Positions 46,301 through 49,300 of a stretch of DNA of 64,000 bases are shown one piece after another. The position numbers are program-made. Positions within the stretch are counted from its first letter, which is position 1; each line of letters starts with the position of its first letter. The DNA comes from Escherichia coli (GTDB lineage Bacteria > Pseudomonadota > Gammaproteobacteria > Enterobacterales > Enterobacteriaceae): assembly GCF_003991155.1 (NCBI RefSeq), contig NZ_CP031293.1. One strand, 5' to 3'.

Positions 46301-49300
46301 GATGCCGGTTTCTGTTATCCGCCAGAAACCAAAACCGTTCCGTTAAGCGAAGTGGTCGCCAACAACGCAGCGTCACAGCCTGTGTCTGTTCCGCAGCAAG
46401 AGCAGCACACCGCGCAATTGCCCTTTTCCGCGCTCTGGGCGTTGTTGATCGGTATTGGTATCGCCTTTACGCCATGCGTGCTGCCAATGTACCCTCTGAT
46501 TTCTGGTATCGTGCTGGGCGGTAAACAGCGGCTCTCCACTGCCAGAGCATTGTTGCTGACCTTTATTTATGTGCAGGGGATGGCACTGACTTACACGGCG
46601 CTGGGTCTGGTAGTTGCCGCCGCAGGGTTACAGTTCCAGGCGGCGCTACAGCACCCATACGTGCTCATTGGCCTCGCTATCGTCTTTACCTTGCTGGCGA
46701 TGTCAATGTTTGGCTTGTTTACCCTGCAACTCCCCTCTTCGCTGCAAACGCGCCTCACGCTGATGAGCAATCGCCAACAGGGCGGCTCACCTGGCGGTGT
46801 GTTTGTTATGGGAGCGATTGCCGGACTGATCTGTTCACCATGCACCACCGCACCGCTTAGCGCGATTCTGTTGTATATCGCCCAAAGCGGGAACATGTGG
46901 CTGGGGGGCGGCACGCTTTATCTCTATGCGTTGGGCATGGGCCTGCCGCTGATGCTAATAACCGTCTTTGGTAACCGCCTGCTGCCGAAAAGCGGCCCGT
47001 GGATGGAACAAGTCAAAACCGCGTTTGGTTTTGTGATCCTCGCACTGCCGGTCTTCCTGCTGGAGCGAGTGATTGGTGATATATGGGGATTACGCTTGTG
47101 GTCGGCGCTTGGTGTCGCATTCTTTGGCTGGGCCTTTATCACCAGCCTACAGGCCAAACGCGGCTGGATGCGCGTGGTGCAAATAATCCTGCTGGCAGCG
47201 GCATTGGTTAGCGTGCGCCCACTTCAGGATTGGGCATTTGGTGCGACGCATACCGTGCAAACTCAGACGCATCTCAACTTTACACAAATCAAAACGGTAG
47301 ATGAGTTAAATCAGGCGCTCGTTGAAGCCAAAGGCAAACCAGTGATGTTAGATCTCTATGCCGACTGGTGCGTCGCCTGTAAAGAGTTTGAGAAATACAC
47401 CTTCAGCGACCCGCAGGTGCAAAAAGCGTTAGCAGACATGGTCTTACTTCAGGCTAACGTCACTGCCAACGACGCCCAAGATGTGGCGCTGTTAAAGCAT
47501 CTTAATGTCCTTGGCCTACCGACAATTCTCTTTTTTGACGGACAAGGCCAGGAGCATCCACAAGCACGCGTCACGGGCTTTATGGATGCTGAAACCTTCA
47601 GCGCACATTTGCGCGATCGCCAACCGTGAACGACACTTGCAGTGGGAAAGACGGAGGAAAATAGCGTGCAACGTGAAGATGTACTGGGAGAAGCCCTGAA
47701 ATTATTAGAATTACAAGGGATTGCCAACACCACGCTGGAGATGGTTGCTGAACGTGTGGATTACCCACTGGACGAGCTACGCCGCTTCTGGCCAGACAAA
47801 GAGGCAATCCTCTACGATGCGCTGCGTTATCTTAGCCAACAGATAGATGCCTGGCGTCGTCAGCTGATGCTGGACGAAACGCAAACCGCCGAACAAAAGC
47901 TGCTGGCACGTTATCAGGCGTTATCGGAGTGCGTTAAAAACAACCGCTATCCGGGCTGTCTGTTTATCGCTGCCTGTACGTTTTATCCCGATCCTGGCCA
48001 CCCTATTCATCAACTGGCCGATCAGCAAAAAAGCGCGACCTACGATTTCACCCACGAACTGTTAACCACGCTGGAAGTTGACGATCCGGCGATGGTAGCA
48101 AAGCAGATGGAACTGGTGCTGGAAGGCTGTTTAAGCCGAATGCTGGTGAATCGTAGCCAGGCGGATGTCGACACCGCACATCGGCTGGCGGAAGATATCC
48201 TGCGCTTCGCCCGCTGCCGTCAGGGTGGTGCACTGACCTGACAGAAACACAGAAAAGAAGCGATTTGCCGCAATCTTAAGCAGTTGAATCGCTTTTACTG
48301 AAATTAGGTTGACGAGATGTGCAGATTACGGTTTAATGCGCCCCGTTGCCCGGATAGCTCAGTCGGTAGAGCAGGGGATTGAAAATCCCCGTGTCCTTGG
48401 TTCGATTCCGAGTCCGGGCACCAAATTCATATAAACGGACCTCCACGGAGGTCCGTTTTTCGTTTCAGGACGCCACGATTTAAGCGTTCTGCCTCCAAAT
48501 CAATTCTACCGAACTCAACCAGATTCTCCCCACATCACCAGTATTTTGCGGGTAGATCCCAATTCGGGGAAATGTGTTCCTGAGCGATAGCACTGACTGA
48601 CGTGAAATGTCGTGCGGCCCCGTGATGCTGTTGAACGTCAAATGACGTCATCAGGAGCGTAACGCATCCATAAAGCACAACATCGGTCTAAACGCCGACT
48701 GATAAGATTTTCTGAATGAGAACAAAGAGAAATGTATCGGTCCACTTGCTCATGCAAAGACTAACAATCCATTAAAATAGTAAGCGCTCCGGACAATTTT
48801 TCATGGATTATTTTCTGAACATTTTTCTTTGGCAAAGATGATGAATTTTGATGGTAAGGAAAATTACTTCTGGTTCTCAGTAAAATCCTTTCGTAATACT
48901 ATGTAATCAAGAAGTTTATGGCGGGTAAAAATAACGTCTTGCATTCACCAATAATATGTAAATAAACCCATCTATAGATGGAAAAAATAGGTTATGGCAA
49001 TTATCATTGCATCATTCCCTTTTCGAATGAGTTTCTATTATGCAACAACCTGTAGTTCGCGTTGGCGAATGGCTTGTTACTCCGTCCATAAACCAAATTA
49101 GCCGCAATGGGCGTCAACTTACCCTTGAGCCGAGATTAATCGATCTTCTGGTTTTCTTTGCTCAACACAGTGGCGAAGTACTTAGCAGGGATGAACTTAT
49201 CGATAATGTCTGGAAGAGAAGTATTGTCACCAATCACGTTGTGACGCAGAGTATCTCAGAACTACGTAAGTCATTAAAAGATAATGATGAAGATAGTCCT

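Follow-up and report, generated by a model that had tools for sequence, protein, structure and literature searches.

The tRNA-Phe genes pheU and pheV are the main insertion sites of pathogenicity islands, with one common type of integrase (PMC7686366, PMC11537424), and a pheU gene with no island behind it raises the question of whether the site was ever used. We addressed this in a stretch of 64,000 nucleotides (nt) from Escherichia coli (contig NZ_CP031293.1 of RefSeq assembly GCF_003991155.1), here called the window, whose positions are used throughout. A sequence-only reading had described pheU in this window as an apparently unoccupied integration hotspot, followed by its terminator and then by only 616 bp of AT-rich non-coding DNA before cadC, and had seen neither an integrase gene nor a direct repeat of the tRNA 3′ end. 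We are highly confident that the locus is the standard K-12-type pheU, with a functional tRNA-Phe gene, an unused attachment site (attB) and, behind it, a fossil integrase gene known in K-12 as the pseudogene yjdQ. The features between the start of pheU and the approach to cadC are as follows.

48348..48423, + strand: pheU, tRNA-Phe(GAA), with its CCA end encoded (ARAGORN; Rfam RF00005)
48401..48423, + strand: 23-bp attB core, formed by the 3′ end of the tRNA, as used by islands with P4-type integrases; intact and in single copy in the window
48424..48586, + strand: spacer from the tRNA to the integrase start; counterpart of the arm next to the integrase in current pheU islands
48587..48619, + strand: integrase remnant, 5′ piece, codons 1 to ~11 (IALTDVKCRAA against MALTDAKIRAA, 8/11 identical), with ATG changed to ATA (tblastn)
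48621..48783, + strand: integrase remnant, 3′ piece, equal to yjdQ (b4654), codons ~359-421, up to the original stop codon (tblastn, PGAP, K-12 annotation)
48781..48973, + strand: AT-rich spacer of 32% GC, confined to E. coli and the cryptic Escherichia clades; presumed site of the cadC promoter

No island is present at pheU today, and the tRNA gene continues directly into K-12-like downstream DNA. The gap to cadC, the next long open reading frame (ORF; 49040-50578, 512 amino acids [aa]), measures 616 bp both here and in K-12 MG1655 (end of pheU at 4362551, start of cadC at 4361934); no DNA extra to related strains was found, and the gap contains no ORF of more than 53 aa and no intact integrase gene. 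A second copy of the 23-nt tRNA 3′ end, with up to three mismatches, was sought throughout the 64-kb window and none was found. A relaxed search for a decayed right-hand site (attR) in 48424-64000, on both strands, gave no match of at least 15/23, a level that 57% of shuffles reach, so weaker matches are uninformative. Repeat searches within 48300-49100 returned only the terminator and short chance repeats, and an Rfam scan of 47500-51000 at E ≤ 1 returned only the tRNA and one chance match. K-12, W and B are all given as free of mobile elements at pheU in a published table (PMC3032704). With the tRNA and the 23-bp core both unaltered, and with insertions at this place in about 30% of E. coli genomes, the site should still be able to receive islands. 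To this extent the sequence-only reading stands: its placing of pheU, the terminator and the gap is borne out by ARAGORN, Rfam, the hairpin and the cadC ORF, the spacing agrees with that of K-12 without indels, and a direct repeat of the tRNA 3′ end is indeed missing from the window.

For the integrase, the annotation and the alignments agree. The K-12 pseudogene yjdQ (b4654; 4362191-4362353) maps to 48621-48783. E. coli CREC-544, which equals 48225-64000 of the window with 0 mismatches in 15,776 nt, carries at the equivalent of 48621-48780 a call by the Prokaryotic Genome Annotation Pipeline (PGAP) for a tyrosine-type recombinase/integrase, described as frameshifted, incomplete and missing its N-terminus. 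As a tblastn query against the 616-bp gap we used the intact 421-aa integrase of E. coli strain ST69 (NZ_CP102488.1), a protein with the domains Arm-DNA-bind_3, Phage_int_M and Phage_integrase whose gene lies 198 nt after pheU, and three collinear matches on the + strand were obtained. The first is the 5′ piece, whose DNA agrees with that of the intact int gene at 20/23 positions. The other two, which make up the 3′ piece, cover residues 359-391 at 48621-48704, with an in-frame stop, and residues 397-420 at 48706-48777, one frame over; these score 37.0 and 29.3 bits (sum E 6e-10), while the best of 195 dinucleotide shuffles scored 22.3 bits and 0/195 reached 29.3. In DNA, the 3′ piece has 65% identity with the 3′ end of int over an alignment with two gaps. 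The reading frame of this piece is interrupted by an in-frame stop (48660-48662) and shifts near 48705, and two deletions have cost it 16 and 14 nt; the first of them, that of 16 nt, takes out the G-V-R-A-A-Y segment that bears the catalytic tyrosine. Five more pheU-adjacent integrases, from Citrobacter, Salmonella, Leclercia, Trabulsiella and Klebsiella, match the same region, three of them in all three pieces and the two most divergent only at 48621-48695. The remnant is oriented like the intact ST69 gene, reading away from the tRNA, and begins 164 nt past it as against 198 nt. A different, reverse-oriented pheU-associated integrase (locus L005) has no meaningful similarity to the gap, and the searchable literature yielded no paper on yjdQ.

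Identified in this way, by pairwise similarity, synteny and existing annotation, the gap holds a pseudogene of a P4-family tyrosine integrase with an internal deletion. What the gene has lost is an internal segment of about 1 kb (codons ~12 to ~358), not simply its N-terminus. With these codons gone and the R-A-A-Y segment lost to the 16-nt deletion, the yjdQ remnant cannot encode a recombinase and is a dead gene. The 5′ piece, for its part, has the support of its position, of the 20/23 DNA match and of related genomes: at the orthologous position E. whittamii retains the ATG and MALTDAKCRA, and E. albertii retains codons 4-41. The statement that no integrase is present is thus right for an intact gene and wrong for a remnant, which is there both by annotation and by tblastn; an integrase remnant in this interval had itself been named beforehand as the result that would refute the reading, being the mark of a past insertion and loss. 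Likewise, "unoccupied" describes the present day, when no island is there, but not the history of the site, in which an earlier integrase has left a scar, and "AT-rich non-coding" fits only the cadC-proximal part of the gap and not the first part with the pseudogene: GC content is 48% in 48424-48586, 44% in 48587-48780 and 30-32% in 48781-49039.

The course of events begins with a P4-family integrase gene some 160-200 bp downstream of pheU and in the same orientation, an arrangement also seen in current pheU and pheV islands. The loss of about 1 kb from within this gene then fused roughly its first 9-11 codons to its last 63-68 codons, and later frameshifts, a stop codon and small deletions removed the catalytic tyrosine segment. 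The remainder of this ancient element, together with its attR, would have been deleted or have decayed past recognition. Several points weigh against this account. The 5′ piece alone is not significant (18.9 bits, equalled by 26/195 shuffles), and the junction is ambiguous by a few codons, a divergent lineage keeping the bases for residues 354-358. The 65-aa conceptual remnant has no Pfam or NCBIfam match and lies almost wholly outside the domain models. The search of the window found no attR of the ancient element, and the searchable literature yielded no mapped start of cadC transcription.

The distribution of the scar shows it to be old. The same fused remnant and junction occur in K-12, in E. 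whittamii and in Escherichia sp. E1V33, and a divergent assembly labelled "E. coli" has a closely similar, slightly different version of the junction. Because E. whittamii and Escherichia sp. E1V33 have the same deletion junction, the scar predates the split of E. coli from the cryptic clades and is much older than the current islands. At least 80% of 48242-49039 is found in one piece in 5,171 of 5,426 complete E. coli genomes. E. albertii NBRC 107761 (locus L011, 10953-11044) has integrase codons 4-41 after pheU, with a stop and a frameshift, and no fusion of the E. coli type, a form that implies an independent deletion or a separate insertion; its contig ends 394 bp beyond the retained codons. 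One E. coli strain, E69 (CP089930.1; locus L010, 10759-13500), has neither the scar nor cadCBA, dtpC, lysU and ghoST after pheU; in their place lie ~2.7 kb with an Eco29kI-type restriction endonuclease and a C5 DNA methyltransferase, and the homology with the window takes up again within yjdJ.

The DNA that separates the tRNA from the remnant also seems to stem from an island. In blastn against the occupied ST69 site, 48340-48554 matches at 205/215 positions; within this, 48424-48537 and the stretch that separates pheU from the intact int are ~96% identical, and the alignment extends to 48554. On the tRNA side, the agreement of many occupied genomes with the window ends at 48537, after which they diverge. 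An unusual conservation of this arm was considered and rejected, its divergence between clades being similar to that of adjacent DNA. An incoming island of the same family would accordingly be flanked not by 23 bp but by a direct repeat of some 137-154 bp (core plus arm, roughly 92-97% identical), and so long a repeat could permit island loss that depends on RecA and not on an integrase.

On the other side of the remnant, the AT-rich spacer is 80-98% conserved among the Escherichia clades and is missing from the cad loci of E. fergusonii and Raoultella, whose homology begins at 48974 and 49002. A probable site of the cadC promoter is the AT-rich stretch of 259 bp that runs from the integrase stop to cadC; a consensus promoter scan upstream of cadC gave nothing above chance. 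Part of this DNA (48802-48922) resembles a segment inside the ST69 pheU island (locus L004, 7173-7292; 61% over 121 nt), both being AT-rich and the likeness probably compositional.

To see how common the empty state is, we queried complete E. coli genomes across the pheU site. The site is contiguous in 3,812 of 5,426 (70%), by a query built so that an insertion lowers coverage below 80%, with a few cases of the SPI-7 type just above that threshold. An empty pheU, put forward as noteworthy, is thus the majority state. Where P4-type islands occupy the site, cadC-side homology begins exactly at 48401, in agreement with the 23-bp core; with an integrative and conjugative element (ICE) of the SPI-7 type the repeat is longer and homology begins at 48375. 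In occupied genomes the remnant always lies between the repeat and cadC, outside the current island and beyond its attR. At least three kinds of element use pheU in E. coli, loci L005 (4561-5631, strain DEF2) and L003 (1-19941, strain VG888-46E9) being among the examples: islands with P4-type integrases, the SPI-7-type ICE, whose repeat measures 49 bp, and an element in which a reverse-oriented 356-aa integrase stands next to a gene with a TraI domain.

The tRNA gene and its left flank complete the picture of the locus.

47666..48241, + strand: dicD (yjdC), TetR-like regulator gene, the conserved left flank of pheU (PGAP of the identical genome CREC-544)
48309..48337, + strand: putative pheU promoter, TTGACG, 17 nt, TTTAAT, with a GC-rich discriminator, GCGCCCCG (read directly from the sequence)
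48433..48465, + strand: pheU intrinsic terminator (hairpin 48433-48458), perfect 12-bp stem, 2-nt loop and T-run

The pheU gene scores 68.3 bits against Rfam RF00005 (gathering score 29) and folds in ARAGORN into a cloverleaf with a GAA anticodon; it is labelled tRNA-Phe in CREC-544 and pheU (b4134) in K-12, and the order dicD-pheU-cadC, as annotated in both, identifies it as pheU rather than pheV. The consensus promoter scan requires A at position 2 of the −10 hexamer, hence the putative pheU promoter is unlisted by it. Next to the tRNA, 48424-48460 is 95-97% conserved in Citrobacter, Leclercia, Klebsiella and Raoultella. Over 8 kb the window is 98.7% identical to K-12 MG1655, and the intergenic region is 97.4% identical and aligned without indels. 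Upstream lie dicD (yjdC), dsbD, cutA and dcuA, and downstream of cadC come cadB, cadA, dtpC, lysU, ghoST, yjdJI and dcuSR. E. whittamii (locus L006, 10644-12659), Escherichia sp. E1V33 and many other Enterobacteriaceae have a 671-aa DUF1176 ORF between dicD and pheU; at the loci with this ORF (L006, L007 and many more) the tRNA lies ~2.2 kb after dicD, and in E. coli, which is without it, ~107 nt after. Elsewhere in the window, three tandem tRNA-Gly(GCC) genes at 16701-16999 on the minus strand form the usual cluster of the glyV-glyX-glyY type.

The cad genes themselves are sound. The ORFs of cadC, cadB and cadA are full length and PGAP calls all three as intact coding sequences in CREC-544; CadB is identical to that of K-12, and CadC agrees at 507 of 512 residues. 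The five CadC differences (I276V, E308Q, E324V, T325M, K328Q) are confined to 53 residues, 276-328 (49865-50023). Loss of cad is a speciality of Shigella and enteroinvasive E. coli (EIEC). Since the 5′ end of cadC is matched in 5,253 of 5,426 complete E. coli genomes (~97%), and loss is a matter of Shigella and EIEC, an intact cadCBA is to be expected in ordinary E. coli, so that the claim of an intact cadC-cadBA locus is correct and its supposed notability is not. A pheU-linked deletion of about 10 kb that covers lysU, yjdL and cadABC has been described (PMC3408504). Some E. coli carry CadC paralogues, 84-89% identical and without cadBA (L095, 10001-11575; L096, 10001-11545), which sit among insertion sequence elements and genes for an autotransporter, an invasin and fimbriae. 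Two CadC homologues (P0007 and P0008), tried as a guide to the context of cadC in E. albertii, proved to be cadBA-less paralogues in other islands and were set aside.

Beyond the AT-rich spacer, the cad genes belong to a larger unit with sharp ends.

48974..57775, + strand: five-gene block, cadC 49040-50578, cadB 50944-52278, cadA 52358-54505, dtpC 54564-56021 and lysU 56258-57775 (blastn)

The loci compared for this block were L087, L090, L091, L092 and L093. In E. fergusonii the block aligns at 90.5% over 8,850 nt (48974-57775), with dgcT on one side and the serX-RtT-ghrA region on the other; the Raoultella copy is 78-79% identical, with homology over 49002-57775, near allantoin genes; Trabulsiella (without lysU) and Pseudescherichia vulneris have it in yet other contexts, and in E. 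albertii the right flank is different (yicG-ligB). Because the same sharp end points lie in differing chromosomal contexts, the block has moved during enterobacterial evolution. E. fergusonii also has two 179-bp repeats between lysU and serX (L087, 18843-19297), each with the last 19-20 nt of the tRNA-Ser gene serX; their interpretation as attachment scars was rejected, as they are ordinary RtT repeats that occur at serX in E. coli too. In a scan with dicD, one genome per species, dicD adjoined pheU in 80 Enterobacteriaceae loci, E. fergusonii not being among those returned. The DNA after pheU proved hypervariable, the commonest ORF family occurring in 8/49 loci and none having a homologue in the window, and among the scanned dicD-pheU loci cad genes follow pheU only in Escherichia.

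How these observations bear on other explanations can now be considered. That the attachment site has never been occupied, and that only featureless AT-rich intergenic DNA follows it, would agree with the lack of an intact integrase, of an att repeat and of DNA extra to K-12, as well as with the table of PMC3032704, which lists no element there. We find this next to untenable: a remnant of the integrase is annotated in K-12 and by PGAP and confirmed by tblastn and shuffles, the arm is homologous to the left ends of islands, and the first 360 bp have 44-48% GC. It is also very improbable that the remnant has been co-opted, whether into regulation upstream of cadC, into a small RNA or a peptide, or into a decoy arm site that affects the integration or excision of islands. 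That at least 95% of E. coli genomes, and the cryptic clades too, have kept it, that it lies directly upstream of the presumed cadC promoter and that the arm is ~96% identical to current island arms could be taken in this sense; but retention is what one expects of neutral DNA between a tRNA gene and a regulated operon, no Rfam family besides the tRNA is present, the remnant has stops and frameshifts, and it gains indels and substitutions between clades at about the rate of flanking non-coding DNA.

More is to be said for a further possibility, which extends the fossil-integrase explanation and does not exclude it: the cad-dtpC-lysU block may be the surviving, domesticated cargo of the ancient pheU integrase island, having arrived at pheU in the lineage from which E. 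coli and the cryptic clades descend. The integrase stop lies 259 bp upstream of cadC, both genes running in the same direction; the block has sharp and common ends (48974/49002 to 57775), and its surroundings in E. fergusonii, Raoultella, Trabulsiella and P. vulneris are unrelated. Within 8-10 kb downstream, cad genes are absent from all 74 dicD-pheU loci outside Escherichia, and pheU is a synteny breakpoint throughout the family. The 42% GC of cadC, compared with 50% for the window, and the toxin-antitoxin pair ghoST after lysU point the same way. Yet the 15.6 kb downstream contain no attR-like repeat, the end of the integrase is set apart from the left edge of the block by 193 bp of clade-specific DNA, and at its other locations the block is without an integrase or att scar. 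Moreover, current islands insert between pheU and existing DNA, so an ancient island could have landed beside a resident cad block and then been deleted. On balance we hold the cargo origin to be possible but rather doubtful; if true, the cad acid-resistance module, a textbook "core" stress operon, entered E. coli as a tRNA-integrated island. The sharp boundaries of the block and its varied sites make the origin of the E. coli cad genes testable with complete genomes.

The fossil-integrase explanation, by which we abide, has two consequences of its own. A detection logic that equates "no integrase and no repeat" with a virgin site will miss old scars of this kind. In addition, the homology available to arriving islands of this family is ~114-131 bp longer with the scar, which could influence their gain and loss.

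Compared with known systems, the combination of an empty pheU, the yjdQ scar and intact cad genes is the reference K-12 arrangement, already annotated and the majority state in E. coli. K-12 yjdQ has the position, orientation, length and 616-bp spacing found here, with only point differences; both the K-12 and the PGAP annotations omit the 11-codon 5′ piece (48587-48619) and the arm homology, and the internal deletion is thus unrecorded in them. Also close are the intP4-type integrases of the genomic islands GI-pheV and GI-pheU (CP4/P4 family; PMC11537424, PMC7686366), which like the remnant lie ~160-200 bp 3′ of tRNA-Phe, in the same orientation and with the same 23-bp core. Over the surviving C-terminal codons the remnant shares 52-58% protein identity with them, and the arm ~96%. 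Unlike these islands, it has only ~74 of 421 codons left, the catalytic domain and the tyrosine segment are gone, and there is no attR and no strain-variable cargo. Occupied E. coli pheU sites, whether with P4-type islands, an SPI-7-type ICE or LEE (locus of enterocyte effacement) islands, have the tRNA, core, dicD and cadC as here (bioRxiv 10.1101/549998) and differ in the tens of kilobases that lie between pheU and a 23-bp or 49-bp repeat, where the window has nothing inserted. Finally, the cad "black hole" of Shigella and EIEC and the pheU-linked cad deletions of E. coli O8:H- 3431-4/86 (PMC3408504) and E. coli E69 concern the same neighbourhood, with pheU as one boundary of the rearrangement; unlike the cad loss of Shigella and EIEC, the window keeps cadC, cadB, cadA, dtpC and lysU all intact.

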